A stretch of DNA of 47,423 nucleotides from an uncultured Lachnospiraceae bacterium (GCA_964541815.1 CAZIRI010000002.1:21074-68496), one strand, 5' to 3'. Shown: positions 16,376-47,097, counted from the stretch's first letter. Numbers and translations are program-made. Notes: generated from the sequence alone by a model not told the origin.

Positions 16376-17137
16376 TTATTTCATTGAAAAGATAGATTGA
16401 AGTTGTTCGATGTCACAATATGTTCTGACAAGTCTTTTTTCTCTTTGACTGAAAACTCCGTCTTCGCCAACAATATAAGAATCTATAAAATTGACTCCGC
16501 AAGTTTCGCAAAGATTTTTCACGATATCAAAAGCCGACCAATCGCTCTGTGATGGTGTTGCCTTGCCATAGGGATGACAATGTGCAATCACAAAGCCCAC
16601 AGGTTTTGATGTTGTAAGAAAGTTTGTAAGTTCCATAACTGAAATCCCAACTTGTCCAGAATTGTTCATTGTAAGTCTTCTTTTATGGGTGATAATATTT
16701 GCCGCACTTATCGCAAAAAGCAACATATTTTCAACCGTGCGAAAGCGGAGACAATCTTCCACAAGGTCGATGATATCTGCAACACGCTTCACGACCATTT
16801 TCTTTCCCATTTTGGAACTTGTGTAATAATAGAACAATTCTCCAAACATCTTGATTTTCTTTGCGGAACGCTCATTGATACCCTTCACAGACATCAGGTC
16901 ACAAATTTCCGCATCAATGATTTGTGTGAAGCACTCATATCTTTCAAGAAGTCGGTGAGCAAGCGGATTGACATCTCCACGAGGGAAAATGTAAGTCAAA
17001 AAATATTCAACAACTTGAATGTCGCTGACGTTGTCCACGCCAGCATTGACAATCAAATCAACAAGTCTTTCTCTATGCCCCTCATGTATGTTTTTCTCTT
17101 TTTTCACCGTTTTTTCTTTTTCATCTTTTGTTTTCAC
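16376..17137 (-). CDS. radC: RadC (UPF0758) protein with JAB/MPN domain
   Basis: N-terminal EGHRERL, HhH-like LMSVKGI, JAB motif AHCHPYGKATPSQSDW; GTG start with SD AAGGAG, 12 bp after the giant gene stop. Confidence 0.9.
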   Translation of the reverse strand: MKTKDEKEKTVKKEKNIHEGHRERLVDLIVNAGVDNVSDIQVVEYFLTYIFPRGDVNPLAHRLLERYECFTQIIDAEICDLMSVKGINERSAKKIKMFGELFYYYTSSKMGKKMVVKRVADIIDLVEDCLRFRTVENMLLFAISAANIITHKRRLTMNNSGQVGISVMELTNFLTTSKPVGFVIAHCHPYGKATPSQSDWSAFDIVKNLCETCGVNFIDSYIVGEDGVFSQREKRLVRTYCDIEQLQSIFSMK

Positions 17138-17149
17138 TTTTATCTCCTT

Positions 17150-20100
17150 TTATGAAGCCTGAATTGCATATCCAGCCTCGCCTGCGCCATTGAGAGTTTC
17201 TCCACTTGTCCAAGCAACCGTGCCATAGTGTTTTGCTGTATATTTTGCATAGAGTGCATTCTTGCTGGCGCTCATTGTGCTTGCAGAATAAACGTAGAAC
17301 GTTGAAACTTTCACAGAATTTCCAGTGCCGTTGTTTCCAGAAACCAACCCACAATTTGCCAGACTGCTTGGTGTACCCGTGATATTATTGTTTATTTCTG
17401 TTGTGTAGCCACATTCATTATCATCCACATGATAGCGACTATATACATCATGCCTTGCACTCCACCAAACTTTGTCCAATGTTGTATTCCATTGAGTGAA
17501 GTTTGCGATTGTTGCCCCATTTGCAATGGCAGCACAATATTTCGTGAATTTTTTATTATTGTTTGCTTCATTCTTTGTTTCGCTGTAAGCACTGCTACCG
17601 CCGTCACTACCTCTGCTAGCAGTTTGTTCTGCATCACTATTGCTTCCTGCTGTTCCGCCATTTGCAGAAGAATAGAATTTATCATTATCACTGTCAACAA
17701 TTCCAACGGAACCTGCTCCACCGTTTCCGCCATATTGATTTGTGAATGATGATATATAACTGCCACTTGTCACTGCTTTCCCAGCATGTCCGCCAGCACC
17801 GCCACCTTTGGCGACACCACTAAATGTGCCATTTGCACCGTCACCGCCGTATCCAGGGATAGAATCATATCCCTCATGCGAAATCAAAGTGTCACCATCG
17901 ACATTTCCGCCAGCATAGCCATCATCACCATTTCCACCATCTTCTCCATTATTAGTGCCCTGCGTTCCATTTTTACCCTTGATTGAACTTCCTGCAATCA
18001 AGATGTCGGCAGTTGTCGGTGTCGTGTTTGCTTTGAGCGTTGTCGTGATTCCGCCAGTTGTTGACAATCCAACCATGGTCACATAACTTGAAATACTGCT
18101 TGTTGTTTCACTTTCTCCAATTTCTCCAATCGTGTAAATTGTTCCATGTCCACCATGGATATTTCTCATTGTTCCATAGAATGAAATATTTGTCAGTGTG
18201 CTTGTATCGTTTGTTGTGGTGAGCATTGAATAATTTGTGAAAGTCGCTGTGTCAGAGTCATTCACTTGTGCAACAACAATTGTGTCCTTTATAAACGAGC
18301 CAGAGCCAGTTGTTCCCTTGCCCAAGACTGAACCTGAATTTGTTGAAGTGATGAAATTCATTGCAAATCCCTGACCAACAATTGAACTTGGAATGCTGTC
18401 AATTTTTGTGTCCCTCATCGCAATGTCATGTCCCAAAATCAAAATGCCAACTGAATTAGCGCTTTCGCTATCTCCTGCTGTTCCTGAATAAGATTGTGTT
18501 GTGCTTGTGTAGACTTTGTATGAGAACTCATTTCCCTTGCTTGATGTCGCTGTCATTTCCACTTTATCAGTTGTTTCATATGATGTTGTTGTTCCGCCAA
18601 TTGACACTTCAACTTTTGTGACATTCGACACTTTTTTTCCAATTGACTTTTCTATTGACTTTTCTAGTGTAGCATAATCATTTGTGTTTCCGCAAGTGAT
18701 TTTTCCATTGAAGACTTTTTGAATTGTTAATTTTTCACTCGTCCATAGACTCGTCTTCAATTGTGAATAATTTGAATTGACTTGATCCACAATGCAACTT
18801 TTATCCAATATTGCAAAAGCATTCACACCGACCGCAATTGCCTTATAATTTGACGCATCCAATAAATATGAATTTGTCGCTTTTGCAGCATATCCATCAA
18901 TATTTCCATTTTCATCTTTAGCTCCCACAAATTCTGTCCCACTGGCAATTAAATTGTAGAAATTTTCAGTCACATTGTAAGCCTCTCCGCTTCCAGTCAC
19001 TTCCAATTGATAGTAAGTATATGTCTCCGTGCCTTCATTTGCTGTTTTCTCCACAGCATAGACTTTCTTGTTGTAATTTGTGCCTATGTCGCCATTCAAC
19101 TTCAAATTGTTTCCATCAACTGTTGCAGATAGTGTGGTTGTTATCGTGCCATCTTTGTTAACCGTCACAACAGAACCATCAGTTATTATATTATTTCCCC
19201 CTGTTGCCCCATAGAATCCAGAGTTGTCGTAGGTATAACTTGTTGTTATTGAACCATCTTTTTCTGTCACTTGAATTGTCACGCTTCCCCTATCATTTGT
19301 GAACAAACCACTTGACCCTGAGAGGTTGTCTTTATCTATTGCTTTTCCGCTTTCATCAACATATTGCATTGTTGTTGTGGTCACGGAAATATTTCCGCCC
19401 GCATATGTCGATGTCGTGTCATTTGGTGAGATTGTTGTGATACAAGTCTTATCCGCTGAAATGCTTCCGCCTCTGATATATACTTGTTTGTTTCCACCAC
19501 TTTTATCACTAACTTCAATCAAATAACCATTGTCTGAATTTCCATTGATGATGTAATACTTGTAAGCATACTTAAATTCATATTCCCCAGAGCCAAGGCC
19601 ACTGTCAGTCATCACTTCATTTGATGATATTCTTGTCAACTTATCTACACTCTTCCATGTGCTACCAGAATTATACATCAATTCAGGCTCTACACAGATA
19701 ATTTTATTGTATGTGGTGGTTCTTTCTTCTGTATAATTATCTCCCGTCACTGACACTTCATTTGGATAATAGAATTTATCAAGTCCTGACAAAGCCCCGC
19801 TCAATGTTGAAGTAGAAGCGTCATATGTGAAGAAGTTGACAACAAAGTTCCCATTTACAATCGTCCCCGTCAATGAATTTGCTGTTCCAACCACTTTCCA
19901 AGTCGTCTTATTATCCAAACTTGTGATTGTCAAACTATTGTTTTGAATTGCATTATACACACTTTCAGACACCTTGTATGTTGTGTCAGTTTCGCTTCCA
20001 GCAGTCACTGCCAATTGATAGTAAGTATATTCACTCTCCTTGCCTTCATTTGCTGTTTTCTCCACAGCATAGACTGTTTGGTCATATGCCCCGTCTTCAA

Positions 20101-23100
20101 CATATTGTCCACCTTCAGTCGTCACATTCCAAGTGCCATTTTCTATTTCCGCAAGGAGTTTGAATGCTCCCGCTTTCAGTGTCAATCTGTCCACCGTGAT
20201 GTCAGAACCATTTGTGAAGACATATTTTGATGTCCCTTTACTTACTTTCTCGATAAGTTCGCTTATCGTGATTGAATCTTCACTCAATGAAACCTTTTTT
20301 TCAGCATAGTTCTGTGCCGTCAATGTGAATGAATCACCAATTGTCTTGAATATGAAATTTTCTGTTGATGACAACGAGATTACCTCTCCACTTGATATTC
20401 CATTTCCAACATACACATCTTTTTGCTCGTTTTTTGTGCTTGATGTGCTTATATTGATTGTCCATGAGTCATTATTTTTCAAGTTTTCTATTATGTTAGA
20501 ATATTCGATTTTCACGCACTTATCATGACTATCACATGTGCAAATTTTATTGTTGGTGCTATTATATATTGTCGTCCCGCCCAACACAACCGATGTGATT
20601 GTGTCGTTTTTGGTCAAGGTCACAGATTCTTCGCTCAAATCAAGGTGAAGATATCCGTTGTTTTCATCATATGTCAAATTGTTTTTATATGCAGTGCCAC
20701 TTCCCGAAATCACATCATTCATTGTGCAAGTGAATGTTGGAGTTGTTGTTTGCTTTTCTGTGTAATAGAATGTCGCACTCACAATTGATGTTGTTTTATC
20801 ACCATTTGCTGTTGCGGTTATCTCATTTATCATCACAACATTGAACAAATCTCCACTTGAAACGCCAAAACTCAACTTGTCTCTTGAAACTTCTCCGTCA
20901 AACTTAAATTCTGCTGTGTATGTGTATGGATAAAGCGAAATCAACACACCGTCACGATTTTTTGCAATGCTTGCGGTTGTCCCGTTGATTGTGAAGTGTT
21001 CAAAGCCATCATCATCATTTATTTCGTTGTTTATTGCGTCATCGATTTCTTGCAATTTGTCATTCAAGTCGTTTTCTTTATATCCGCTCGCTGTGACAAA
21101 TTTTGTGCCGTTTCCTGCACTCATTTTGTTGAGATAACTCAAAATTGAATCATATCCATTATATTCATTTTCTTTCGCATCATTTCCAAGCCATGCCTTG
21201 TAGTTGATTGAGCCGAGAATTGAAGAACTTGGATACGTCAAGTCTTGCTTAAGTCCGTCACTTATATATGCTGTTCCAGTTGTCCCTCCAATACTATGGA
21301 ATTTTGTTGATTCGGAATATTTCCCCTTATCATTAAGCGTATATTTCCCATACAAGTTTGTGCTTCCTTCGTTTATTCCTAATACAGCCGTCAAATCTTT
21401 ATAAAGTGGATTTGTGGTCGTCAAACTTCGAGTCATTGTGTCTGTCGCATACAATCGAAGTGGGAAGCCATATGAATCGTATGCCGAAATTGTGCAACCT
21501 ATTTTACCTTTTATACTCTCCTTATCCCCCGATGTAAATGTCTCAGCATGAACACTTGACACAAATTTCGCTTCATAGTCACCACCATTTTGTTGTGCCA
21601 ACTCCGCTTTTCGAGCAAATGTCAAAGTGCTTGTCACAGAAATTTCACCGACATTCCCTTGATTTAGAATATTGTTGTCAGAAGAGGTGTTTGATGAGTC
21701 TATCACATCGGCACTTTCACTATATCCAATTCCATAGGCGTTGACAAGTCTGTTTGAGCCTGAATTGTATGTCATTGTGATAGTGTATTCCAAATCATCC
21801 GGCTCTGTTGTCGCAATCTCTATTTTTGCTGTGCCACTTGTCGCTACTGTGATTTTATAACTTCCGCTCTTTGCACCCAAAGCCTGAACCGCTCCGCCAT
21901 TCGTGCAAGAAGAGACAGTCCCGCTCTGTGCATATCCAACAATTCCGCCCGCATAGTTGTATCCAGTGGATGAAGTCATTCCAGAGCCGACAAGCCCTGC
22001 ATTGTCACAAGATTTGATTGAGCCACCAATCATATATCCGACAATTCCGCCTGAGATTGAATTTTTTGTCTTGCCAGCCCCAGAATAATTTGCAAGAATT
22101 GAGTTTGAATTGTATGAGTTTGAAATTGCCCCATCATCCATTTGTCCGACAATTCCGCCCGCAATTGCATTGATTGAAGCGGTGACAACATTATTATCTT
22201 TTGTGACAAAAGTCATTGGAGCATCACTATTAAGTTTTGTCACCTTGATTGAAAGTCCTGTCCTTGTGCTAGAACTATCCGTCAAAATCACTCTTCCATT
22301 GTTTGTGAGATGGTCAATCACCCCTATTTTTCCTCCGTCCCTGCCGTTCACCTCGCCAAACAAACCGCCGACAATTCCGCCCTGTGTCGCCGTCACATTG
22401 ACAACCGCCTCAATATATGATGCGTTTCCTTGCAATGTCTTCGCAATTCCGCCCGCAAGTGTTTTTGTTGTTGTCAAAGAACCTGTCACTGTGAGATTTG
22501 TCAAATCTCCCTCGATTGTCTCTGCCAAAATTCCACTTGCTCCACTGACATTCAAACCAGAGATTCGAAGATTTGAAATATTTCCTGTCAATACATTGAA
22601 AAGTGCAGAAGATTTAATTTCCGTGAATGAAATTGTGTGATTTTGCCCGTCCAAATTGAGCGAAACAGTTTGATTCCAAGTCAAATTGTCGCCTTTGATA
22701 TCATATCTCAATGTGGTTGAAATTTGAGGGTTTGAGACATTCTTTGCATAAGAAATGATTTGATTGAGTTTGCTTGCTGACAAAATTTCATAATATGCAT
22801 CCGATATTTCTTTATATGTCCCGTCTTCATTCACCAAATCGCTGTAAGCAAATTTTTCAAAAGTCTCTGTCGTTTCTCCTTTTTCGTCTGTCGTTTTAAC
22901 AAATCTGTATGTCGTCACATTTTTCAGATATCCAAATCCATGTGAAGCATATCCATAATTTGTGTGTTTTGAATAATACCAATTATTTTCCGTGGCATAA
23001 GAAGTGGTATCCTTTTTAATGCCAAAGCCCTTTATGCTAACAATTTTTTCATTGTCATATCCAACTGCAAAGTCGTTTCCATCATATTTTTTCACTATGC

Positions 23101-26100
23101 TTATTGCAGTAGTGTCTTGTGAAGCGTCAATCACACTTCCCAAAATGTTTACGCTGTTTCCAACAACAAATTTCTTTTCGCTTGAACAATTTCCGCTCCC
23201 CAAAGCGTTGATATCTTCAATTTGTGTGATTGAATAACAATCTTCAATGTCATTTTTTGTGTTTCCAATTGATTTTCCTGAATACACAAAAGTTGCGACA
23301 GGGGCATCAACATATCTCAAAATTTTTCCAGATGAATATGTCGCTTTGATTGTTGTTTGACCATTCCAAACATTTGCAATGCCAGAAACAACTGATTGAT
23401 ATGAATTTTTATTATTATCTACTTTATCTGGACCCGCTCTGAAAATGATATCCGCATCGACATAACACTCATTCACAAAGCCGTCTTCCATATCACCAAT
23501 CATGCCCGCAAGTCGAACATATTGTCCAGCCTCTTTGCCACCAACGGACAATTTGCCTTCCACACCAACGCCATAGATAAATGTATGTCCAGAAGTTTTC
23601 CCGACAATTCCGCCAAAATTAACAATACTTCCATCATATTTAACATCAACAGCAATGTCCAAATCAAAGACAACACCTGAAATTCCAGAGAAATGCGCCT
23701 CTATCTTATTCTCATCCGCTGTGCCAAGTTCGTTCACAAATCCGCCAATAAAGTGTTTGTTTGTATAGAAGTCTTTATCTGTGTCATTTCCCTTGACTTT
23801 CACAGTTTGCCCATTGCCAACAAACATAACATCTTTCAGATTGTTGTCAATGTTGTTTGTCCATTCAGTCTCATTCAAATTTATCCATGTGATGCCATGT
23901 GAATTGCCAACCGTCTTCGCATTAACAGCCGTTTTATAACTTGAATAACCTTGATATGGGTTGATTTTTGCCCCAGAAACACCACTTATTGAAGAAAATT
24001 TTGCAAGAATATTTTCTGTTTTCTTTGTGCTATATCCATCAAAACCGCCTGAAACATATCCCACATCAAAATTTTCGTTCTCATATTGATATGCCATACA
24101 AACACTCGAATTGTAGTAGTTTTCACTGCAACTCACCTTGTCCGCATTTTGTCCAACAATCGCACCAATATGGTCATTCGTCGTTGCGGTCACATCATTT
24201 GAAGATTGAGTAGTTGACACCCTATCATTAAAGTTTGTCAAAAGTGAATAGCAACCATTGATATTGATTGTTTGACTAGCGTTGTTTTCGTTGCCTGATG
24301 ATATATTGACATTTCCAACAATTCCACCAAAGATATATTGAGATAATCTGTCAGCAGAGTTTTGCCCATACATAATCATGACATCACCATAGGCATAACA
24401 TTTTGAAATCGTGAAGCCATTTGAGGAACCAACTTGTCCAATCACACCGCCAACGGTCAACTGCCCACCATTCAAGGCTTCACCAAAGACTTTCAATGCA
24501 CCGCCATAATAAATGTTTGAAAGTCCAGTATCAGAAGATAAGTTTACCCCATTTCCAACGGCACCACCAAAGACAATTTCTGAAGAATCAACAATAGTGA
24601 TTCCGTTGTATTCACAAAGCGCACTGCCATTGCATGTGAAACCAACACCTTGAGCATTTCCAACAACACCGCCAATGTGTGCTGTTGTTGTCGTTGTTGT
24701 CGTTGTTGTTGCTTTTGCATAGATATTCAAGTTGTTGACAACATTTGCACTGATTCCAATCCTTGTGTCTTGTGCCGTTCCAATCATTCCACCAGCATAA
24801 GCATTTGCAGTTGTTTTTTCATTTGCAGTTGTTTTTGCGAAAACACCCCCGTCAATTTGCAAATTTCCAGAGAATGAGATTGTCCCGCCGACACTTTCGC
24901 CAACAACACCGCCGACATAAAGGTTTGTGCTCTCAAATGAATATTTATCCAAGTCATAATTTTCTTGATTTTTGTCAAATTCTTCCAAGGTTTCTGTGAC
25001 AACACTGTTTGTGGTATTCCCGACAATCAAATCAATTAGAATTCCATTCACAGAGACCGTTGCTGAATTTGTTTTTCCAACAATTCCACCAATATCCGCA
25101 TTTGTGACAGAATTGCCCTCACTCAAAATCTTTCCAACGATTTTTGCACCCGTATATTGAGATTTGAGTTCCATTGTCGCATTTCCAAGTTCCCCAAAAA
25201 TCAAGCCCGCATAAGCATTTGCACAGCCACCAACAACAATCGTCATGCCTTTTGCGTCAGCCGTTTCATCCGCCTTTGCAGAATATGATGCAGATGAGAT
25301 GACCGCTTTTCCAGCCACTCCACCAATACAAGCATTTCCACCAATACAATCATTTTTATTACTGCTTGCCTTGATTGTGACATTTTCAATTTGTGGAATT
25401 TCCAAGCCAATTGGAACATTGTATTCTTCTTGAGAAATCAAGCCTGCATACAGTCCCGCATACAATTTTGAATCGTCAGTTTTTAGCTTTGCCGAAATTA
25501 CGACGTTCAACTTCAATTTTGCTTCAGAATTGTTGTAAACCCCAAAATTGATATCTGAAATAACAACATTTGTGTATGAATTTGTTTCATGAATCTGTCC
25601 CGCAATCAAGCCCGCATAAGCCATTTGTTCATTGCCAGTTCCAACATTCATTGTCACTGTTGTTGCGCCTGAATCATTTGAACTTACTTTCCACAAGAAA
25701 TTGACTGTTTCAAAGGATGTTGACAATGCATCAGGAACAAACAGCCCTGCACTTGAAGCACCACCGCTTGTCACTCCATTCATAGTCACATCGCCACCAT
25801 AGACAACATCAACCTTTCTTATGATTGAAGTTATAGCCCTGTCAGCAATCACACTGCGTGAGATATTGACATTCATATAAATTGGCACACCTTGAATTGT
25901 TGCTCCTTCAAGCGAATTGAACAAAGATGACCCATTCAAAATAATCCCAACTGGAGAACTTGAACTTTGACCACCCGTTCCTTCTTTATTGATTTGGAAT
26001 GAATAAGCATTCTTTTGAATCCCCATATATTCATTATAGCCCAACAATTTTCCTTTGAAAGTCAATTCAGAGAATTTGACCCCATTGTAGTTATAGGTGC

Positions 26101-37323: not shown

Positions 37324-37352
37324 AAAATATGTGAGAATTTGTCGATTTATGA
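37324..37352 (-). promoter_or_regulatory. SigE-like promoter of spoIIID
   Basis: Minus strand TCATAAA, 14 bp, CATATTTT; resembles the Bacillus SigE consensus (TCATATT-N14-CATACAAT-like), and spoIIID is a known SigE target. Confidence 0.65.
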
Positions 37353-37363
37353 GAATTTTTGTC

Positions 37364-37391
37364 AAAAAAAATAAACGACATCTGCCGTTTA
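37364..37391 (-). terminator. Intrinsic terminator of acpP
   Basis: Minus strand TAAACGGC-AGAT-GTCGTTTA-TTTTTTT overlapping the stop codon. Confidence 0.8.
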
Positions 37392-37619
37392 CTTTTTGCT
37401 TTCTTCAATCAAGTTTACTATATCGCCAATTGTTTTGATTTGTCCAATTTTCTCATCCGGAATTGATATGCCATATTCATCTTCCAATGTCATAAGCATT
37501 TCGATAACATCAAGAGAATCTGCACCCAAATCTTCGACAACATTTGATTCCATCTTCACTTTTTCTTTTGATATTCCAAGTTGTTCAGAAACCAAAAGAG
37601 CCACTTTTTCGAAAACCAT
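37389..37619 (-). CDS. acpP: Acyl carrier protein
   Basis: DLGADSLDVIEMLMTLEDEYGISIPDE with the phosphopantetheine Ser; SD GGAGG before ATG 37619. Confidence 0.95.
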   Translation of the reverse strand: MVFEKVALLVSEQLGISKEKVKMESNVVEDLGADSLDVIEMLMTLEDEYGISIPDEKIGQIKTIGDIVNLIEESKK

Positions 37620-37638
37620 ATTGACCTCCATGTTCTAT

Positions 37639-37689: not shown

Positions 37690-38256
37690 TTATTTACTTT
37701 GTAAATCAAGATAATTGTTTGGGTCAACCTCCACTCCATTTTGCAACAAAACAAAATGCAAATGATTTCCAGATGAAAGTTCATTTCCAGCAGTTGTGGA
37801 AGCCGTGCCAATCAAATCTCCAACCACAACGGACGAGCCAACAACAAGGTTTTGAATTTCTGCAAGAGAAGAATATTCACTCACAAACCCGTCCTTGTGT
37901 GAAATTTTGACAATATACCCGTCAAGAGAATTGTTGCCAATGCTTGTCACAACTCCATCAGCAACCGCCAAAACATTGTTATTGTCAGAAGCAAAATCAA
38001 CTGCCAAATGTATTTCCCAACGCCCTAAACTTTCATTAAATTGCAAATGGTCATCAGCATAATCTTTGACCACAACTGCATTTTCCATTGGCAATCCAAA
38101 ATGCAAACTCTCCGTTGAAACAACTTGCTCTTCAAGTTCAACTTCCTTTGGAGCAACATTCAAAGCGATTGCAAGAGCAATCAAACCGCATGCAACACAC
38201 CCACCACCAACAATTCCACACTTTTTCAAATACGCAAAAACTTTATTTTTTTTCAT
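37690..38256 (-). CDS. spoIIQ: M23/LytM peptidase with N-terminal TM anchor, SpoIIQ-like
   Basis: N-terminal TM helix; HLAVD (HxxxD) and GNHLHF (HxH) motifs; lies upstream of spoIIID as in the conserved spoIID-spoIIQ-spoIIID cluster; SD GGAGG before ATG 38256. Confidence 0.7.
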   Translation of the reverse strand: MKKNKVFAYLKKCGIVGGGCVACGLIALAIALNVAPKEVELEEQVVSTESLHFGLPMENAVVVKDYADDHLQFNESLGRWEIHLAVDFASDNNNVLAVADGVVTSIGNNSLDGYIVKISHKDGFVSEYSSLAEIQNLVVGSSVVVGDLIGTASTTAGNELSSGNHLHFVLLQNGVEVDPNNYLDLQSK

Positions 38257-38275
38257 TTTCACCCCTCCAAACACA

Positions 38276-38304
38276 ATGATTAACACATTTTTTTGCATTT
38301 ATAC
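38276..38304 (-). promoter_or_regulatory. Possible SigF/SigG-type promoter of the spoIIQ-like gene
   Basis: Minus strand GTATA, 15 bp, GTTAATCAT; the -35 and spacing match forespore sigma consensus, the -10 only partly. Confidence 0.45.
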
Positions 38305-38310
38305 AAAAAT

Positions 38311-38784
38311 TTAATAACTTGTCAAAATCATGGGGAAAGCCACAACAATATCATTTTCTCTCTCAACAATTTGGCAGTTCACTTTCTTATTTTCAACAGC
38401 AACACTCTTTTTCCAGCAAGAAACAAAGAGATATGTCACATTTTTCTCATCAATTTTTTCAGAAAAAACAATTTCACCACCAAGTTTTTCTTCAATTTCA
38501 GACAAAGTTGCCCCAACAATATAAAATTGAATGGAATCAACATCATCAAAATTCAAATCTCTATTTTTTATTTCATCAAAAGTCCCATAATGAAAAATTT
38601 TGTCCCCACAAACAACGGAAGATATCGAATCGTCGTCATATTCCCACTCCTTGTCATCAACAACACACACCCGAACAACATCAAAATTTCCAAAAATGGA
38701 ATAAATTGTTTTTTCCAAATTCGAAAAGCAAAAACACGAACACAGACAACTCAAAATCAACAGTCCAACAATTATTTTCTTCAT
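38311..38784 (-). CDS. YwmB-like protein (signal/TM at the N-terminus)
   Basis: C-terminal KVNCQIVERENDIVVAFPMILTSY resembles the YwmB-family end (N.QIA.R....I.G.P.I...Y); position upstream of spoIIQ/spoIIID matches the ywmB-murA-spoIID region. Confidence 0.6.
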   Translation of the reverse strand: MKKIIVGLLILSCLCSCFCFSNLEKTIYSIFGNFDVVRVCVVDDKEWEYDDDSISSVVCGDKIFHYGTFDEIKNRDLNFDDVDSIQFYIVGATLSEIEEKLGGEIVFSEKIDEKNVTYLFVSCWKKSVAVENKKVNCQIVERENDIVVAFPMILTSY

Positions 38785-38859
38785 ACAATATATAATTGAC
38801 ACAAAAATGAGAAATAAAACAAAAAAACATATTGAAATCAATACGCTTTTTTCAAAAAT

Positions 38860-39177
38860 TTAATTTATACCCGCATTCACAATCAAAAAGACAATATATC
38901 CAATCGCAGCAACTGACAAAACAAGCAAAAACCACAACAAAGGTTTTGTGTTTACAGGCTTTTTTTCTTTCTTTTTTTCAATTTTTTGCTCTTTTTTCTC
39001 AACATTTTTTGCAATTTCTGGCATTTTTTCAGTTTTCACACCATTAGGAATATTTGGTTTTGCAAAATCAGTGCTGTTTGGCACTTGTTGAGGTCTTTCA
39101 ACAACAGGTTCAGTTTTTGCCTCCAAATGTGGTGGAATGGGTGGTTTTCGTGGTGGAACAAAATTATTATCAGGCAT
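38860..39177 (-). CDS. Small Pro/Lys-rich protein with C-terminal TM helix (105 aa)
   Basis: SD AAGGAG before ATG 39177; MPDNNFVPPRKPPIPPH..., KKEQKIEKKKEKK, then LLWFLLVLSVAAIGYIVFLIV. Confidence 0.7.
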   Translation of the reverse strand: MPDNNFVPPRKPPIPPHLEAKTEPVVERPQQVPNSTDFAKPNIPNGVKTEKMPEIAKNVEKKEQKIEKKKEKKPVNTKPLLWFLLVLSVAAIGYIVFLIVNAGIN

Positions 39178-39254
39178 ATACAACTCCTTATATTTATATA
39201 TTTTAACTAAAAAAAGAAAAAAAGTCCAACAAATTAAAACATTTGTCAAACTTT

Positions 39255-40634
39255 TTACATTTTCCCCTTTCGTCTTCTTTTATCTCGCTCCATTCTGAAG
39301 TTTTCGATTTGTTTTCTTCTAAACTCTTGACTTTCAGATTGCAATTCACGACATTTTCTTGTCCAACAATATTTTTTGTTGCCAATGACCGTGTCATATG
39401 AAACAACAATCAACCCCTGAATTAGATAGAAGTAGTAAGAGCAAAACCTCCAAGCAAGCAACGCCCAAAAAGTATTCCCAGCCAAATATCCACTGAAAAG
39501 AACGGTGAACGACAACTCATTCATTCCCGTCCCACCAGGCAATGGGATGAAACTTGCCGCCAGTTCAATCAACGCTGTGCAAACAAAGCATTCAAAAAAA
39601 CTCACTCCTTCCGCTCCAAATGCCATGCAAATGAAATATGGAATTGAAAAAAGCAAACACACTCTTGCGATGTTGAGAACAAATTGTAAAAACAAGTCAT
39701 ATCTTGCTTTCGAGTATTCTTTGATAACTTTTTGATAGTCTTCAACAAGCGTTATAACTTTTGTGTAATTTTTGTCATAATCTTTCAATAGTCTTATTTT
39801 ACAAAGAAATCTGATACACCACGAAACAACTTTACTCCCCGCCTTTTTTGATATTGACAGGAAAAGAACCATTGACACCATAAATAGTGTGATAATAAAG
39901 CCCGCAACACTCAAAATTGAAACAACTGAACTCATGTGATTTGTGAATGAAATCACAAGACAAATACCTGTCACAAAAAGCCATGAAATATTTTGGAAAA
40001 GAAGTTTTGACAAAGGTGTTGCAAGTGCCGTTGCCCCAGGGACATCACGACTTGTCAAATATCCAATCATAAATGGTTGTCCGCCCGCAGCAAAGGGTGT
40101 CACCGAATCATAATAACGCAAGGTCGCAAACGATTTATATGCCAAAATCCACCTTGAACGCAAGGTTTTTCTGTATAGCATTCTGTGAATTGATGTCGTG
40201 TCAACAAAAACAATCAAAAGCAGGAAAAATAATGCCAAAAGCAAGTATCCAAAATTCAATTTAAGCAAAGAAAGTGGGGTAAAATTGTCTGATGACAAAA
40301 TATTCCAAGTCAAAATCCCTGCGACAATGACAATGTTGAAAATAAAGAATACAACAGTTGTTATTTTCTTCTTTTTTGTGTTTTTCTTTGATTCAGCAAC
40401 TTCTTTTTGAGCCTGAACAATTTTTTCTTCAACAATTTTTGTCTCTTCTTCGCTCAATTGTTTGCTGTTTAATTCCGCAAGTTTTTTTTCTCGCCTTGCC
40501 TCAATTTTGCTTTTTATGCGTGAAAAAAGATTTTGTTTTGCAGGTTTTTCAAGCCCATAAACAAAATTTCTCTCCATTTCATTATTTTGAGAATTTTTCT
40601 CTTCTACTTCAATTTTTTCAGAATCTTTTTTCAC
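39255..40634 (-). CDS. Lysylphosphatidylglycerol-synthase TM-region / MprF-flippase-like (UPF0104/YbhN) membrane protein with charged N-terminal extension
   Basis: YYDSVTPFAAGGQPF and FIPLPGGTGMNELSF motifs, ALLAWRFCSYY, multiple TM helices. The ORF-track TTG start (40673) is actually the promoter -35; GTG 40634 is the likely start. Confidence 0.85.
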   Translation of the reverse strand: MKKDSEKIEVEEKNSQNNEMERNFVYGLEKPAKQNLFSRIKSKIEARREKKLAELNSKQLSEEETKIVEEKIVQAQKEVAESKKNTKKKKITTVVFFIFNIVIVAGILTWNILSSDNFTPLSLLKLNFGYLLLALFFLLLIVFVDTTSIHRMLYRKTLRSRWILAYKSFATLRYYDSVTPFAAGGQPFMIGYLTSRDVPGATALATPLSKLLFQNISWLFVTGICLVISFTNHMSSVVSILSVAGFIITLFMVSMVLFLSISKKAGSKVVSWCIRFLCKIRLLKDYDKNYTKVITLVEDYQKVIKEYSKARYDLFLQFVLNIARVCLLFSIPYFICMAFGAEGVSFFECFVCTALIELAASFIPLPGGTGMNELSFTVLFSGYLAGNTFWALLAWRFCSYYFYLIQGLIVVSYDTVIGNKKYCWTRKCRELQSESQEFRRKQIENFRMERDKRRRKGKM

Positions 40635-40644
40635 AACTATCACA

Positions 40645-40692
40645 ATTTTAGCAAAAAAACAGCCCCTTGTCAATTTAATAGGGGCGGTTTTT
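40645..40692 (-). promoter_or_regulatory. SigA promoter (TTGACA-17-TAAAAT) whose -35 lies in the loop of the upstream gene's terminator hairpin
   Basis: TTGACA 40673-40668, TAAAAT 40650-40645 with extended TG; hairpin GCCCCT(12 nt loop)AGGGGC followed by TGTTTTTTT. Confidence 0.8.
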
Positions 40693-40693: not shown

Positions 40694-42490
40694 TTATTCT
40701 TCATACAAACTTTTCAAATTTGCTTCAAAATATTTGATTGATTTGCAATCATGCTTCAATTTGTTCATATTCATTGATGTGAAATCTGAAAAATTGTCGC
40801 TTTCACATTCACTATACAAAACATCAAGCAATGTTTTTTGTGAGAAAATATTTGTTCTTGTTGAAGCAAAAACATTGATTGCTTCATTCGTCTTCACTGA
40901 AACACTTCCGTTGACAACTGGGAACAAATTGTCAATTTTCCCAGCATAGAAGAAAATGTAATATGCATCATCTGTTTGAACAACTTCTGATATATCCCCA
41001 ACTTTCACATCTCCGCCATTATACAATGAAACGATTGCAGATTTGATTGCATCATCATCAAAATCATCACTTGTGACAGCATTATTGTCTTTGTCAACAC
41101 CAAAAACTGCATTGTAGTCAGCATTTTTGTATGTGTCATCATCATTATATAAATAGAAATATTTTTTGAACGCATCCGCTTTTTGCAATGCAACCGCATT
41201 GTTTATTTCGTCAGCATTTTCATCAGTCGAATATTTCCCAGCACTTGTCACCGCTTTTGAAATTTGCGTATAAAGTTCATTTATTGAGATTTTTTCATTG
41301 GTGTCTTCGCCCTTTTCATTTCTGATTGTGACGATTTTGTTGCCCATATTGTTTATTTCAGCAACTTTTTCATTGTATGTTTGAGCATCAATTTTTCCAT
41401 TTGCTTTTTGTGTGTCCAAATCTGACAAAGTTGTTTTTCTCTCAATCTTTATTGGTGCGATATAGAAATAGTTTGTTGCATCAGTTCCTGTCAAAATATA
41501 ATCAACATCACCAACACTGCTTAACATATTTGATGCATAAGTTGTCGTGTCTATCGCTGTTGCATATGAATTGTAGTCAACAGCAACTTTGTTTTTGTAT
41601 GTTTCCACAATCTTGTTTGCCGTGACAGATGAAGCAACGCTATCTTCCTTTGCATATTGATTGTATATTGTTTCATAGACAGTTGAATAGTAGTTTGTTT
41701 TCATAATTTGATAAATTCTATCGAACTCGAAAAGCATGCAATCTTTGTTTGTGTTGAAAGTGATGTATGAATAATTTTCTTTCACAATTTTCAGATATTT
41801 GTCCAAAGCCTTTTGCCAAGCCTTTTTGCTTGAATCTCCACCACTTGTGATTGCGTTTTGAACGCAATCATACATTTTCTCTTTGAACTTCTCAACTTCA
41901 AAATTGTATGCTTCCCCGTCAAGTTTCCCGAGTGCATCGACATATTCAGTTGTGCTTTTTGTTGTTGTCACACGAGAACTCTTTTCAAATGAGATGTTTC
42001 CATTTTTATCCACAACAATTTTGAAACTGCTTGTATATTCACTTGTGTAGCCATCATAAACTGATGAGGAAGAGTCGTCAGAGTCTTCATCTTCATCATC
42101 ACTGTTGTTGTCAAGATATGATTTCAAGTTTGAAATAAATCCGTCATAAGTTGAAGACCACAAATATGAAGTTTCATTGTCATTCAAAACATATCCAGAG
42201 TCCACAACGGCCTTTGAAGTCAACTTGCTTTCAACGACAGTGTCCAAAGTCTCCATAATTGCTTCTTTTAGTGTCATGCCATAGTTGTCAACATAGTTGT
42301 ATCCATAACTTGAATATGCAGTGATAAGTTCTCTCTTTGAGATGTCTTCTTTTATCCCGTCGCCATAGGTGATTGTTGCGACAGTCGCAGTGTAATATGT
42401 TTTGTCGTCAGTCGTGACAAGGTTGCAACCTGCAAACATTGACACACTTAAAACAAATGCAAGCAATAATGATAAGATTTTTTTCTTCAC
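40694..42490 (-). CDS. Enlarged PrsA/SurA-like foldase lipoprotein with degenerate parvulin domain
   Basis: GTG 42490 with SD GGAG; lipobox FAG-C; SurA-N-like EDISKRELITAY; parvulin-like C-terminal KVGDISEVVQTDDAYYIFF; sits after mfd, where prsA lies in many Clostridia. Confidence 0.65.
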   Translation of the reverse strand: MKKKILSLLLAFVLSVSMFAGCNLVTTDDKTYYTATVATITYGDGIKEDISKRELITAYSSYGYNYVDNYGMTLKEAIMETLDTVVESKLTSKAVVDSGYVLNDNETSYLWSSTYDGFISNLKSYLDNNSDDEDEDSDDSSSSVYDGYTSEYTSSFKIVVDKNGNISFEKSSRVTTTKSTTEYVDALGKLDGEAYNFEVEKFKEKMYDCVQNAITSGGDSSKKAWQKALDKYLKIVKENYSYITFNTNKDCMLFEFDRIYQIMKTNYYSTVYETIYNQYAKEDSVASSVTANKIVETYKNKVAVDYNSYATAIDTTTYASNMLSSVGDVDYILTGTDATNYFYIAPIKIERKTTLSDLDTQKANGKIDAQTYNEKVAEINNMGNKIVTIRNEKGEDTNEKISINELYTQISKAVTSAGKYSTDENADEINNAVALQKADAFKKYFYLYNDDDTYKNADYNAVFGVDKDNNAVTSDDFDDDAIKSAIVSLYNGGDVKVGDISEVVQTDDAYYIFFYAGKIDNLFPVVNGSVSVKTNEAINVFASTRTNIFSQKTLLDVLYSECESDNFSDFTSMNMNKLKHDCKSIKYFEANLKSLYEE

Positions 42491-42543
42491 AATTTTCTCC
42501 ATAAATTTTATTTGCTCAAACCTATTGAGCGTCTAACCATTTT

Positions 42544-42590: not shown

Positions 42591-45500
42591 TCAATCTTTT
42601 TTGAAACCCAGTGCATTTGAGAAAATTTCAATCAATAAATCGAGTTTTTCAACAACTTTCCCTTGAACATTCACTTTTAGAATAGGCAAATCTTCAAATT
42701 TTAAGCACGCATCATAAAATTTGACAACATCCGACAATCTTTTATCAATAATTTCTTCCGTTTTATAGAAAAAAACTGAACATTCGTTTGAATTTACACG
42801 AATTTTGCACACCCCAAATTCACTTGCCATGTTTTTTAGGTATGCAATTTTACACAAATTTTCGACTTCAACAGGCAAATCACCATTCATTTCAACAAGT
42901 TCTTCACTCACCTGTCTCAATTCAGTTGCATTTGAAATTTTGCTAATTTTGTCATAAAAAACAATTCTTTCTTCTTGCGACACAATATATTCTTCACTGA
43001 TATACGCATCGAGTGTGATTTCAACCTTAATTTCTTTTGAAGATGCAACTTTTTGCCCAGAAATTTCTCTTGTCACCTCTTCCAAAAGTTTGACATACAT
43101 ATCATATCCAACTTTTTGCATATGCCCGTGTTGCTCTTTGCCTAAAACATTTCCCGCCCCACGAATTTCTAGGTCACGCATTGCAATTTTGAAACCGCTT
43201 CCAAGTTCTCTAAATTCCTTGATTGCGTCAAGTCGCTTGTATGCATCTTCCGTCAAAACCTTTCCGCCGTCATAGGTCAAATATGCATAAGCAAGTTTGT
43301 CCGCACGCCCAATTCTTCCACGAATTTGATAGAGTTGCGAAAGCCCCAGCCTGTCACAATCCACAACAAAAAGCGTGTTTAACGCTGGCAAATCAATCCC
43401 GTTTTCAATCAAAGTTGTTGAAATGAAAACATTGTATTTATCATCATACAAATCGCTTATCGTCTTTGAAAGTTCACTTTCAAGCATCTGCCCATGTGCA
43501 ACTCCTATTTTTGCCCTTGGCAAAAGACTTGCAACATGTGACCTAAACTGATAAATCTCTTCCACTTTGTTAAAAAGTATCAATGCCTTGCCATTTCTTG
43601 ACAACTCCCGTGAAACAACATCAACAAGAAGTTGGTCACTGTATGGAGTCACATATGTTTGAATTGGAAGCCTGTCCTTTGGAGGAGTTGCAATCACACT
43701 TATATCACGAATGCCCGAAAGTGACATGTGCAAAGTTCGTGGAATTGGTGTTGCAGACAAAGTCAAAACATCAATATCTGTCTTCATTTTCTTTATTTTT
43801 TCCTTGTCTTTAACTCCAAATCTCTGCTCTTCATCAAGCACCAAAAGCCCCAAATCCTTAAACTTCAAATTTTTATTCAAAATCTTGTGAGTGCCAATCA
43901 AAACATCAATTTTCCCGTCCGCAACTTTTTTGTATATTTCCTTTGTTTGCTTGTCGTTTTTGAAACGATTTAACACTTCAACTCGAATTCCAAACCCAGC
44001 CATTCTTTGCATGGTAGAGCGGAAATGTTGCTCACTCAAAATTGTTGTTGGACACAAAAATGCCACTTGTTTTCCGTTATAAACAGCCTTAAAAATCGCC
44101 CTCAAAGCAACTTCGGTTTTTCCAAATCCAACATCGCCACAAATGAGTCTATCCATGATTTTGGATGATTCCATATCACCGTCGACATCTTGCACTGCTT
44201 GCAGTTGGTCGGGAGTTAATTCAAACTGAAACGAATCGGAAAATTGCTTTTCAAGTTCTTCATCACGAGAAAAAACAAAGCCTTTTGCATTTTCTCTTTC
44301 CTTGTATATTTTCGCAAGAGCAATTGCAACTTCTTTCAAATCCTCTTTGACTTTTGCTTTGAGTTTGTTCCACTCACTCGTGCCAAGCGAATTGACTTTT
44401 GGGACATCTCCGCCAACATAGGCAGTCAAGAGATTTGTTTGTTCGGACGGCAAATACAACAATGCACCATTTTTGTATTCAATAACAAAATAATCTTTTT
44501 CAAACAAAGACAATTTCATTCTGACGATGTCTTTACAATGTCCAATTCCATAAAAAGAATGAACAACATAATCCCCAATTTTTGGCAAATACGAAAAATT
44601 TTGCTTTCCAGAACGGAAATCTGTGTGCTGGGACTTATACATATCGTCAGTGCCAATTCCAACAACAAATTTATCCAAAAAACTGAAAGAATATGGAAAA
44701 TAATCTCTACATAAAAATACTTTTGTGTCAGAAACAATTTCATTTGCAAAAACTCTGTAATCAATTTTGTTTGTCAGCAAAAATTCTTGCAAAATATCAA
44801 AATATTTTCCTCCAAACAAAAAAATTCTTTGCCCCGCTTTTGCGTATAATTCTATGTCTTTTTTCAGTGACAAAAAGTCGGTTATATAACTTTTTTGTCC
44901 CAAAGTTTTGTTTTCAAAAGTGGATTTTGTCGTGTTTGAAAAAACAACACATTTATTCAAATTCAAAGAGTCAAAATCAAAAAACAAATCATCTTTGCTC
45001 CATGATAATTCCTCTCTCCCCTTTTTCAAAAGTTGGCATTCATTTGAAATTTTTGTCGGTTCATCGACAATTATCTCATCACACAAATCACAAATTGAAT
45101 TATCTCCAAATTTCAAAAAAAGTGGAAAAATGTTCAAATTTTCAACAAAATTTTGCGTTTTCATGGTCGAAAAATCAAAATTTATCATTTTTTCTATTGA
45201 GTCATCAAAAAATTCCAACCTAACAGGGAGTTCTTGGTCGCCCGCAAAAATGTCAACAACATCGCCACGAACAGCAAACTGCCCAACACTTGTCACATAG
45301 TCAACTCTTTCATATCCAAAATCAATAAGTCGTTTTTTTAGCGTTTCAATAGGAAATTCTTTCCCTTTTTCAAGTTTCAATCTCTCATCCAAAAAATCCA
45401 TATCAAATTTTGTTGAAAGTGAAGACGGCAAGAAAATAAGTGCGTCAAGTTTGTAGTTTATAAAAGAAGAAATTGCTCTTGCAAAAGGCATCAAATTTGG

Positions 45501-45725
45501 GTCATTTTCCTCTTCATTTTCCCTTCCACAAGAAACAATTTCAACTTTTTTATCACACTCAACAAGCCCTTTTTTCAACTTGCTTGCTGTGACAAAATCA
45601 GCACAAATATACACAAATCGATTTTTGCAAGCACAATAAAGAACTTTTTCGCCAATAAAAAATCCGCCCAACTGTTTTTTGTTTGGCATCACATCTTTTT
45701 GAAGAATATCTAACAAATTTTTCAT
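42591..45725 (-). CDS. mfd: Transcription-repair coupling factor Mfd
   Basis: RID IGDYVVHSFYGIG, CGDVGFGKTEVA, DEEQRFGV, LSATPIPRTL, QIRGRIGR, RDLEIRGAGNVLG, C-terminal TRCF domain. Confidence 0.98.
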   Translation of the reverse strand: MKNLLDILQKDVMPNKKQLGGFFIGEKVLYCACKNRFVYICADFVTASKLKKGLVECDKKVEIVSCGRENEEENDPNLMPFARAISSFINYKLDALIFLPSSLSTKFDMDFLDERLKLEKGKEFPIETLKKRLIDFGYERVDYVTSVGQFAVRGDVVDIFAGDQELPVRLEFFDDSIEKMINFDFSTMKTQNFVENLNIFPLFLKFGDNSICDLCDEIIVDEPTKISNECQLLKKGREELSWSKDDLFFDFDSLNLNKCVVFSNTTKSTFENKTLGQKSYITDFLSLKKDIELYAKAGQRIFLFGGKYFDILQEFLLTNKIDYRVFANEIVSDTKVFLCRDYFPYSFSFLDKFVVGIGTDDMYKSQHTDFRSGKQNFSYLPKIGDYVVHSFYGIGHCKDIVRMKLSLFEKDYFVIEYKNGALLYLPSEQTNLLTAYVGGDVPKVNSLGTSEWNKLKAKVKEDLKEVAIALAKIYKERENAKGFVFSRDEELEKQFSDSFQFELTPDQLQAVQDVDGDMESSKIMDRLICGDVGFGKTEVALRAIFKAVYNGKQVAFLCPTTILSEQHFRSTMQRMAGFGIRVEVLNRFKNDKQTKEIYKKVADGKIDVLIGTHKILNKNLKFKDLGLLVLDEEQRFGVKDKEKIKKMKTDIDVLTLSATPIPRTLHMSLSGIRDISVIATPPKDRLPIQTYVTPYSDQLLVDVVSRELSRNGKALILFNKVEEIYQFRSHVASLLPRAKIGVAHGQMLESELSKTISDLYDDKYNVFISTTLIENGIDLPALNTLFVVDCDRLGLSQLYQIRGRIGRADKLAYAYLTYDGGKVLTEDAYKRLDAIKEFRELGSGFKIAMRDLEIRGAGNVLGKEQHGHMQKVGYDMYVKLLEEVTREISGQKVASSKEIKVEITLDAYISEEYIVSQEERIVFYDKISKISNATELRQVSEELVEMNGDLPVEVENLCKIAYLKNMASEFGVCKIRVNSNECSVFFYKTEEIIDKRLSDVVKFYDACLKFEDLPILKVNVQGKVVEKLDLLIEIFSNALGFKKD

Positions 45726-45735: not shown

Positions 45736-46248
45736 CTAATTTGGATTTTTCACTTTTTGGCAAACCATTTCAACCGCTTTTTCAATCACAGGAAAAAAAA
45801 AGTTTCTGTCGAAACGAGATAAAACATAATCCGCCAAATCTTTTGAGATATCTCTCCCAATGCCGATTTTCACTCTTTCAAAATCTTGCCCAATATATGA
45901 CACAATACTTCGAAGCCCGTTATGCGTTCCGCCCGAACCACGCAAACGATATCTAACATATCCCTGTGGCAAATCGATATCATCGACAACAACCAAAATT
46001 CTTGCATCCCTAAACTTTTTTCTTATCATAGAGACACATTCACCACTCAAATTCACATAGGTTTGTGGTTTGACAAGCAAAACTTTTTCGCCGTCAATAA
46101 ACCCCTCACCCACAAGGGCCTTATATTTTTCTCTGTCAATGCTCACGCCAATTTTTTTTGCCAAAGCGTCAACAGTTTCAAAACCCATATTGTGATAAGT
46201 TCCGCAATACTTTTGCCCAGGGTTTCCAATTCCAACAATAACAACCAT
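45736..46248 (-). CDS. pth: Peptidyl-tRNA hydrolase
   Basis: VGIGNPG..Y..T.HNMGF, KPQTYVNLSG, DDIDL, GGTHNGLRSI. Confidence 0.97.
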   Translation of the reverse strand: MVVIVGIGNPGQKYCGTYHNMGFETVDALAKKIGVSIDREKYKALVGEGFIDGEKVLLVKPQTYVNLSGECVSMIRKKFRDARILVVVDDIDLPQGYVRYRLRGSGGTHNGLRSIVSYIGQDFERVKIGIGRDISKDLADYVLSRFDRNFFFPVIEKAVEMVCQKVKNPN

Positions 46249-46257
46249 TTCAGCACC

Positions 46258-47097
46258 CTAAATTTTTTGATTTACAATTTTTGCGAAAGGTCCAACAACC
46301 CTCCCGCTCTCAATTTTGCTTTTTTCAAGATAACTTTGACAAACAAAACATTCGTCACAAACTATCGTGTCCAAAATGTAATTCCCACTTTCAAGAATAA
46401 CATTTTTTCCAATATAACTCTCGCCTTTCAAAATGTTGTTTGGATAAACAACTGTCCCCGCTTCAATCTCAACATCCGCATCAACAAAAATTGTGTTCTC
46501 TCCAAAGAAAACAACCCCATTTTGTTTGTGATAATCCAAAATTCTTCCATTCAAAATTTTGAAAGCGATTGAAATTGCTTGTGCGTTGTCAACAACAAAA
46601 AATTCTTCTTTCCCAAGATTGTCAACATTGGTTTCAAGCAAAATTCGGGCAGTTTTCAAATAATCTGCACGAAAAACAAATCCACGAGTCAATTTCATAA
46701 CATTCAGTCCGCTGTTTGCAAATCTGTTCATAATGTCAACAAAAGTTGTTTTTTGAAGAAGCGGTGTGTCGCCATATAAAAATGCAACATATTCAAATTT
46801 TTCATACACATCATTTTCAACAACCTTTCTCAAAGTCGCCAAAATATTGTCTTCGTCAACATCAATCAAAACTTGCTCGCAACATGAAGACGCAAGACGC
46901 ACCCAGTCGATGATTTTTTTTCCACACAAATCAAATTCAGAAGACACTTTTCCGTGCGTGTGAGAAATTGCCACCAAAGTTTTGCCAGCATCCCAAATTT
47001 TGCTTTTTTCATTTTCAGTTTTGAGTTCAACATTGTTCAAAAAGTCGAAATTTATTCGATTTTCTTCAATTTTCACATTTTCAATTTCAGTTATCAT
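46258..47097 (-). CDS. Degenerate GlmU-like protein (279 aa): partial nucleotidyltransferase fold plus the start of the left-handed beta-helix
   Basis: LYGDTPLL; VDN...ILNGRILDYHKQNGV...TIFVDADVEI..GTVVYP...GPFA matches the GlmU linker/LbH start; no LAAGxGTRM motif; ends at GPFA; occupies the glmU position upstream of pth-mfd. Confidence 0.75.
   Translation of the reverse strand: MITEIENVKIEENRINFDFLNNVELKTENEKSKIWDAGKTLVAISHTHGKVSSEFDLCGKKIIDWVRLASSCCEQVLIDVDEDNILATLRKVVENDVYEKFEYVAFLYGDTPLLQKTTFVDIMNRFANSGLNVMKLTRGFVFRADYLKTARILLETNVDNLGKEEFFVVDNAQAISIAFKILNGRILDYHKQNGVVFFGENTIFVDADVEIEAGTVVYPNNILKGESYIGKNVILESGNYILDTIVCDECFVCQSYLEKSKIESGRVVGPFAKIVNQKI

Follow-up and report, generated by a model that had tools for sequence, protein, structure and literature searches.

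The window analysed here, a stretch of 47,423 nucleotides from an uncultured Lachnospiraceae bacterium (GCA_964541815.1, CAZIRI010000002.1:21074-68496), contains a block of genes (positions 16376-47097) from which genes for peptidoglycan precursor synthesis, remodelling and cell shape are missing at their usual places, and in which a 19.6-kb gene for a giant lipoprotein follows spoIIID. A preliminary description of this DNA interpreted these gaps as several independent local losses that may indicate a reduced or rewired cell wall in a lineage that keeps its sporulation regulators, and mentioned relocation of the genes as the alternative. We consider it quite likely that the block is the product of genome compaction and of the relocation of wall genes in the tiny-genome family UBA1242, not of wall loss, and that the respective Firmicute neighborhoods collapsed in an ancestor of this family. 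The gene order is conserved among relatives, a mur cluster is found in the same metagenome-assembled genomes (MAGs) as the block, MurA retains its catalytic residues, and the GlmU-like protein of the block combines a GlmU-like fold with the lack of the catalytic parts.

According to the scenario that we favor, the window would be a chromosome stretch of a new genus-level member of UBA1242, a family of uncultured gut Clostridia with genomes of ~0.7-1 Mb. Gene loss and rearrangement in the family ancestor would have collapsed two neighborhoods, glmU-prs-pth-mfd and (atp)-ywmB-murA...spoIID-spoIIQ-spoIIID-mreB/mbl, and their anchors (the GlmU remnant, pth, mfd, the ywmB-like gene, the spoIIQ-like gene and spoIIID) would have been retained and joined into one co-directional block. 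A gene for a giant surface lipoprotein would now stand after spoIIID, at the place that mreB/mbl has in other Clostridia. Peptidoglycan synthesis would have been kept, with murA, the genes of the Mur ligases, ddl, mraY and a SEDS polymerase gene consolidated elsewhere, beside cortex-lytic and early-sporulation genes and ftsA-ftsZ-spoIIGA-sigE-sigG.

Placement of the window in family UBA1242

In an open reading frame (ORF) scan, all the long ORFs between 16376 and 47097 were found on the minus strand. Read along this strand, the block encodes the GlmU-like protein, Pth, Mfd, a lipoprotein, an LPG-synthase-TM protein, a small membrane protein, a YwmB-like protein, an M23/SpoIIQ-like peptidase, an acyl carrier protein (ACP), SpoIIID, a lipoprotein of 6545 amino acids (aa) and RadC, and is closed by a terminator. 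Judged by its closest relatives and by the gene order that it shares with them, the window matches family UBA1242. The closest UvrB proteins in the GTDB species representatives are 66-68% identical to that of the window, and a Ca. Onthoplasma MAG is among the sources of these matches. With the M23 protein, 21 loci were retrieved in GTDB species representatives (loci L084-L104 in our numbering), some of them from Ca. Caccovivens MAGs; every one of these loci that is long enough to show it has the full order, with the GlmU-like gene at one end and the giant gene at the other, and with identities of 64-76% for Mfd, 44-58% for the GlmU-like protein and 33-42%, over ~3000 residues, for the giant protein. 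A scan with PolyA_pol retrieved 37 relatives. The 21 and the 37 GTDB loci share synteny and include Ca. Caccovivens faecavium and Caccovivens sp., and the same type of order is also present in JGI metagenome contigs. Ca. Caccovivens is the GTDB genus UBA11517 of family UBA1242, order Christensenellales (PMC8035907), and Onthoplasma is listed under UBA1242 as well (PMC12306168). What had been taken for several independent local losses is instead one arrangement, which is family-wide and ancient.

The species of the window is represented by at least 13 contigs from independent assemblies, up to 254 kb in length and 99.4-99.8% identical to the window, and is absent from the GTDB representatives. 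Because its nearest GlmU-like relative outside the species is 64% identical, it probably constitutes a new genus in UBA1242.

UBA1242 comprises uncultured gut bacteria, mostly with genomes of <1 Mb, that lack pathways for amino acids, nucleotides and lipids as well as the F0F1 ATP synthase, have incomplete glycolysis without glucose-6-phosphate (G6P) isomerase and have unexpectedly kept sporulation genes (Begmatov et al., mSphere 2025, PMC12306168). The window resembles the published genomes in sharing its gene order with the Caccovivens and Onthoplasma MAGs, to which its proteins are 45-76% identical, and in keeping sporulation genes: SpoIIID and a SpoIIQ-like protein are encoded in the window, a SpoVB-like protein is encoded in its flank, and SpoIIR, SipL, SleB, YpeB, SpoVG, SpoIIGA, sigE and sigG are found in relatives. 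The match to UBA1242 thus bears out the suggestion, made from the window alone, of a reduced lineage that retains sporulation regulators. Neither prs nor an atp operon stands at its usual place in the window, in agreement with the published finding that the family is devoid of nucleotide synthesis and ATP synthase (PMC12306168). Unlike these traits, the gene order, the mur cluster, the GlmU remnant and the giant lipoproteins are not described in the accessible part of that paper; with the window species, a lineage known since 2025 gains a new member and some details not yet reported.

A metagenome contig of 898,928 bp with a GC content of 31% (PPCM01000005.1, locus L264) carries the LPG-synthase/M23/ACP/SpoIIID/giant gene arrangement and may represent an almost complete genome from a related lineage that is likewise reduced.

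Genes for peptidoglycan synthesis in the relatives

In a deeper relative (L157), murC lies just downstream in the PolyA_pol region. With the MurC of this relative as a probe, MurC was found on other contigs of 15 MAGs that carry a window-like block, namely CALVZQ01, CAMMFF01, URXM01, CALWQM01, JAFTMH01, DVLK01 (Ca. Caccovivens faecavium), CALVZE01, CALVYQ01, CATKZB01, CAKNGB01, CANQFL01, CAJJUK01, CAYNTF01, CAZQMZ01 and CANPYI01. As identified by tblastn with E. coli proteins and by precomputed Pfam matches, the cluster of these relatives encodes MurC, an alpha/beta-hydrolase, MurF, Ddl, MurE, MraY, MurD, FtsW/SpoVE and MurA, and runs on into SerS, FtsA, FtsZ, SpoIIGA, sigE and sigG. Upstream of murC are encoded SpoVG, YpeB (E 6.9e-43), a SleB-like cortex hydrolase with Hydrolase_2 and PG_binding_1 domains (E 1.9e-38), SpoIIR and SipL. 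The MurA of one relative (L185) is 43% identical to E. coli MurA and retains K22, N23, R91, C115, R120, D305, D369, R371 and R397; more than 120 clusters of such MurA proteins are present in the protein database, one of them named Ca. Caccovivens MurA by NCBI.

MurA, Mur ligases, MraY, Ddl and a SEDS polymerase, the absence of which would characterize a wall-less organism, are all present in the MAGs of the 15 relatives. Because these MAGs carry the mur cluster, an intact murA does lie elsewhere at the family level, and the reduced peptidoglycan wall proposed in the preliminary description is contradicted by the murC-murF-ddl-murE-mraY-murD-ftsW-murA genes and by their neighbors encoding SleB and YpeB. 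As far as gene content tells, the family makes peptidoglycan precursors and has enzymes that degrade the spore cortex. The window species presumably has the same mur cluster as its relatives.

The whole supercluster, with genes for SipL, SpoIIR, SleB, YpeB, SpoVG, MurC to MurA, SerS, FtsA, FtsZ, SpoIIGA, sigE and sigG, is found in L185 (3309-21272), L200-L203 and L297, and a possible FtsQ-like protein is encoded between murA and SerS. No match to murG or to a class B penicillin-binding protein (PBP) was found in 20 kb of the supercluster, and murB had no probe.

The right flank of the window in the same species (L120) encodes, in this order, PolyA_pol, a VanW-like protein, a DedA-type protein, a LysM protein of 54 aa, a MOP flippase, a Listeria-Bacteroides-repeat protein, DUF421 and DUF4363. 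The alignment of the flippase with SpoVB (TIGR02900, E 5.8e-62) extends over the full length, with a score under the equivalog cut-off. The row of VanW-like, DedA-type, LysM and SpoVB-like genes (L120:1251-5299) is located 5-9 kb beyond the right end of the window. In 37 relatives, the ORFs of the 10 kb that adjoin PolyA_pol on its right look like housekeeping genes, and MurC in L157 is the only match to a peptidoglycan probe; three of these ORFs we take, from their N-terminal sequences alone, to be cysS, a recD2-like and a priA-like gene. In L157 and L158, murC stands just after the VanW-like gene, which makes it another mur gene displaced in the core of UBA1242.

The GlmU-derived protein

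The first gene of the block (46258-47097) encodes a GlmU-derived truncated protein of 279 aa, which has sub-threshold Pfam matches to Hexapep and NTP_transf_3. Its AF2 (AlphaFold2) model (pLDDT 85, pTM 0.78) has the two-domain GlmU fold, that is, a Rossmann-like domain, a long helix and a left-handed beta-helix, and the top 36 Foldseek matches of the model in PDB are all GlmU (TMq up to 0.71). In the predicted architecture, a nucleotidyltransferase-like N-terminal domain of reduced size is joined by a linker helix to a short left-handed beta-helix. The family profile matches residues 221-331 of S. pneumoniae GlmU, which comprise the linker helix and the first turns of the beta-helix, with an E value of 1.8e-17, the match of the N-domain being faint, and the local alignment to E. 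coli GlmU covers residues 271-332 only.

The protein thus resembles the bifunctional GlmU enzymes (S. pneumoniae 4aaw/1hm0 and E. coli 1hv9) in its two-domain fold, with TMq ~0.7, but differs from them in being ~180 residues shorter and in lacking the uracil-binding segment and the N-terminal signature motif. The N-domain is ~100 residues shorter than that of GlmU. The signature L-x2-G-x-G-T-x-M-x4-P-K (LAAGxGTRM-type) is absent, the family consensus at this place being ...TLVVIVKAKGxISPNFDICGKK... with no GxGT(R/K)M, and no alignment of the GlmU-like protein to residues 14-25 of E. coli GlmU was obtained. At the other end, the chain stops short of the acetyltransferase site, at a point that corresponds to E. 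coli residue ~337; we assume here the active-site positions of E. coli GlmU and take its site for acetyl-CoA and glucosamine-1-phosphate (GlcN-1-P) to lie at about residues 333-440.

The orthologues share 57 invariant columns across 13 species, and the family comprises 195 clusters in the protein database; the 120 clusters listed are mostly 270-310 aa long, with none of full GlmU length, and where named they are mostly called "hypothetical protein". The protein is a conserved derivative of GlmU that very probably lacks both canonical activities. A decaying glmU pseudogene was considered as well and is ruled out by the intact ORF, by the invariant columns and by the number of clusters. The earlier reading of a degenerate glmU was right as to the sub-threshold Pfam matches and the missing catalytic parts; the gene is, however, not decaying and represents a conserved truncated family. 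The remnant would be either non-catalytic or of changed function.

Gene order of the block

The order spoIIID-mbl is known from B. subtilis and the order spoIIQ-spoIIID-mreB from Clostridia. A scan of JGI metagenome contigs for SpoIIID returned nothing with a single sequence and 80 loci with an alignment; about 20 of the 80 loci, from other Clostridia, have the order M23-SpoIIID-MreB, and in three of these (e.g. L247 and L252) MurA is encoded ~2 kb upstream. Since this is the order in other Clostridia, the giant gene occupies the mreB/mbl slot, as had been supposed in the preliminary description. Like the classical Firmicute locus, the window has the ywmB-like gene, the M23/spoIIQ-like gene and spoIIID in equal order and orientation; unlike it, the window lacks murA, spoIID and mreB/mbl, has acpP inserted before spoIIID and has the giant gene in the place of mreB.

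The YwmB-like (DUF1779) gene (38311-38841) is directly followed by the SpoIIQ-like gene (37690-38298), as had been noticed before, with a gap of 12 bp. The match of the window copy to PF08680 is weak (13.6 bits, with a cut-off of 25.6; E 0.08), and all 16 of the aligned orthologues match this family, with a best E value of 1.4e-9. Next to the YwmB-like gene, there is no atp operon upstream and no murA downstream. SpoIIQ is a LytM-domain engulfment protein that forms a channel with SpoIIIAH. The M23/LytM peptidase of the window (PF01551, E 2e-18) has SpoIIQ (NF053738) as its best NCBIfam match, with 58 bits (E 7.6e-16), under the cut-off of 250 bits; a hydrophobic N-terminal membrane segment is visible in its sequence, and its gene is located just upstream of the spoIIID region. 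The metal and catalytic motifs are retained: in an alignment of 22 sequences, HxxxD is invariant throughout the family, and the window copy has HLH.

The M23 gene is separated from spoIIID by a gene for ACP (37389-37631; Pfam PP-binding, E 4.8e-13), which the preliminary description had passed over and which is found at the equivalent place in all relatives; the insertion of the ACP gene before spoIIID is a hallmark of the clade. The ACP at the M23-spoIIID junction occurs across UBA1242 and the wider clade with 46-82% identity, although lipid biosynthesis is reported to be lacking. The SpoIIID ORF (37057-37365; PF12116, E 1.1e-26, 93 bits) likely starts, according to the family alignment, with the ATG at 37305.

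At the upstream end of the block, no prs is present between the GlmU-like gene and the gene for peptidyl-tRNA hydrolase (pth, 45736-46248; PF01195, E 7.9e-53), the gap between which is 9 bp, and this junction is common to 14 relatives. The junctions within the block are tight, and no pseudogene remnants were found at them. A tblastn search with E. coli MurA, MreB/C/D, GlmU, GlmS, Prs, Mur ligases, MraY, FtsW, FtsI and FtsZ gave no match in the window. The loss of mreB/mbl, mreCD, prs and functional glmU is plausible, and in the scenario that we favor, prs and the MreBCD elongation system would be truly lost.

The block ends with a gene for a RadC-like JAB-domain protein (16376-17137; PF04002, E 1.7e-14), after which a terminator-like hairpin with a 15-pair stem and a T-run (16348-16315) lies between radC on the minus strand and a convergent ORF of 124 aa on the plus strand; the terminator following radC had been reported correctly. 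In several Oscillospirales (L012, L030, L038 and L057), radC is directly upstream of uvrB-uvrA, with unrelated genes before radC, and in L055 an MreB-like match adjoins radC. Because radC-uvrBA is common in Oscillospirales, the radC-uvrB junction of the window may have arisen without any loss of mreBCD. For this reason, the suggestion that mreBCD had disappeared from beside radC is weak.

Giant lipoprotein genes

The giant orphan lipoprotein of 6545 aa is encoded at 17150-36787; its gene follows SpoIIID, as described earlier, after 269 bp, and its N-terminus, MKKIAYIFVGILMMLGGVTLTAC, reads as a lipoprotein signal with a lipobox. The protein is rich in Ser, Thr, Gly and Asn; like the second giant protein described below, it has no matches in Pfam, NCBIfam or the PDB sequences and no internal repeats detectable by BLAST. 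Our impression that the giant proteins carry GLUG-like beta-helix modules is unconfirmed. Orthologues follow spoIIID in the relatives with 33-42% identity, and in the wider clade the giant gene comes after spoIIID either directly or after one opposite-strand gene. In some lineages (L258 and L232), spoIIID is instead followed by an HflX-like ORF and by ORFs that resemble, in their N-terminal sequences only, the window genes to the left of hflX. A surface or attachment role of the giant lipoprotein in a partner-dependent cell is a reasonable supposition.

A second giant lipoprotein gene, for 3496-3510 aa without any Pfam match, occupies positions 1-880 of the window (minus strand) and is continued in L114:12734-22706. 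Its start, at ~880, is 28 bp beyond the gene for a VirB4/TraG-like ATPase (908-3613), and the gene extends past the left boundary of the window. A genome likely <1 Mb in size thus has both of these giant genes within ~60 kb.

Alternative explanations and significance

Several features of the window would suit a lineage that has lost or greatly reduced its peptidoglycan wall, has kept its sporulation regulators and uses giant lipoproteins as a substitute envelope structure: the window has no murA, spoIID, mbl/mreB, mreCD, prs or functional glmU, GlmU is without its catalytic parts, at least two giant lipoprotein genes lie within 60 kb, and the family is strongly reduced (PMC12306168). Peptidoglycan and sporulation have been lost in Mycoplasmatales and related Bacilli (Field et al. 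2024, as cited in PMC12306168), with which the window has in common genome reduction within Bacillota and the disappearance of wall-related genes from conserved positions. However, the UBA1242 family keeps the Mur pathway, a SEDS polymerase, cortex hydrolases and sporulation sigma factors, and is not wall-less. Relatives that bear the block have intact murA, murC/D/E/F, ddl, mraY and ftsW/spoVE as well as SleB/YpeB cortex hydrolases, by which wall loss is refuted at the family level, and the window species itself has SpoVB-like, LysM and VanW-like genes and an M23 peptidase with intact motifs; we regard wall loss as very unlikely. Even less credit, close to none, is due to misassembly or chimeric contigs as the origin of the odd junctions. 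The window is metagenome-assembled and giant repetitive genes can break assemblies, but the same junctions recur in the independent contigs of the same species and in more than 20 other species.

Compaction with relocation of the wall genes has to be reconciled with several observations that weigh against it. The mur cluster was seen in the MAGs of relatives only, where its link to the block rests on co-binning rather than on a single contig. All four MurA candidates (P0035, P0033, P0080 and P0115) came from samples other than those of the window species, and among the matches listed the longest-contig values of MurA never coincided with those of the GlmU-like protein. MurG, a class B PBP, full-length GlmU, GlmS, Prs and MreB/C/D were not seen in the UBA1242 loci examined, which represent a minority of each genome (MurB, GlmM and SpoIID were without a probe), and some rewiring of the wall pathway may have occurred. 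The relocation that the preliminary description had offered as the alternative holds for murA and the Mur pathway, which lie elsewhere in the relatives, and finds no counterpart for mreB/mreCD and full-length glmU in these loci.

The wall may thus be made while the MreB/MreCD/RodA machinery, Prs and the canonical GlmS/GlmM/GlmU route are truly gone; to this partial rewiring we assign a chance somewhat short of even. If it were true, the cells would be coccoid, with wall built only at the septum or the forespore and with dependence on a partner for amino-sugar nucleotides, and the GlmU remnant would have a non-canonical role. MreB/C/D, GlmU, GlmS and Prs gave no match across the block region (~80 kb) and the mur region (~30 kb) of UBA1242 in many species, and the GlmU remnant, kept in 195 clusters, is never of full GlmU length among the 120 listed. 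PMC12306168 mentions MreB, RodA and MrdA in connection with the other two lineages studied alone, which implies their absence from UBA1242, and reports that the family lacks nucleotide biosynthesis and G6P isomerase. The paper, however, does not state the absence of MreB, RodA and MrdA explicitly, the loci examined here make up the smaller part of each genome, so that a full-length glmU could be present outside them, and an intact MurA implies a supply of UDP-N-acetylglucosamine (UDP-GlcNAc). A bolder version, in which UBA1242 builds peptidoglycan and cortex without GlmS/GlmM/GlmU or the MreB elongasome, a partner supplies UDP-GlcNAc or precursors, the family-wide GlmU remnant, kept at the former glmU position, has been repurposed as a non-catalytic protein or one of altered specificity, and the giant lipoproteins encoded next to spoIIID and next to the VirB4-like ATPase serve to attach the cell to that partner, appears to us unlikely.

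Compaction with relocation corrects the attractive but wrong reading of these bacteria as wall-less spore-formers, and indicates that gaps in local synteny, when they occur in a streamlined genome, cannot be taken to mean that a pathway is lost. Relative to the accessible part of PMC12306168, what is new is the family-wide collapsed gene order, the consolidated mur-fts-sporulation cluster, the GlmU-derived, pseudoenzyme-like family and the orphan giant lipoprotein genes, each of which takes up ~1-2% of the genome and one of which sits in the mreB slot. These results are incremental rather than surprising, and provide leads for cultivating and imaging abundant gut bacteria.

Other features of the block and the window

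The remaining genes of the block, all on the minus strand, lie between pth and the YwmB-like gene. Mfd, the transcription-repair coupling factor (42591-45725), has the Pfam domains UvrB_inter, CarD_TRCF_RID, DEAD, Helicase_C and TRCF. It is followed by a gene for a clade-specific lipoprotein of 602 aa (40694-42502), the N-terminus of which contains ...FAGC; this protein has no matches in Pfam or NCBIfam and is 32-44% identical to those of the relatives. Next come genes for a membrane protein with an LPG_synthase_TM (MprF-like) domain (39255-40673; PF03706, E 7.4e-26) and for a small Pro/Lys-rich membrane protein (38860-39249), an ORF without a family match that has weak homologues at the equivalent position in L097 and L098.

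Outside the block, a lipoprotein of 911 aa with a weak Big_3 domain is encoded at 10530-13265 (minus strand), inserted between uvrB and uvrA, which are adjacent in most of the other Clostridia compared (e.g. L002 and L005-L007). Two small ORFs of no known family, at 15939-16313 (plus strand) and 15501-15884 (minus strand), are located upstream of uvrB and are kept in a Ca. Onthoplasma MAG (L003:156-890). The 124-aa ORF is inverted with respect to its Onthoplasma homologue, which creates the convergent pair sharing the terminator after radC. On same-species contigs, a DUF1858 gene of 71 aa has been called at ~4614-4829 (plus strand), and given this call, the overlapping minus-strand ORF of 86 aa at 4508-4768 is probably no gene.

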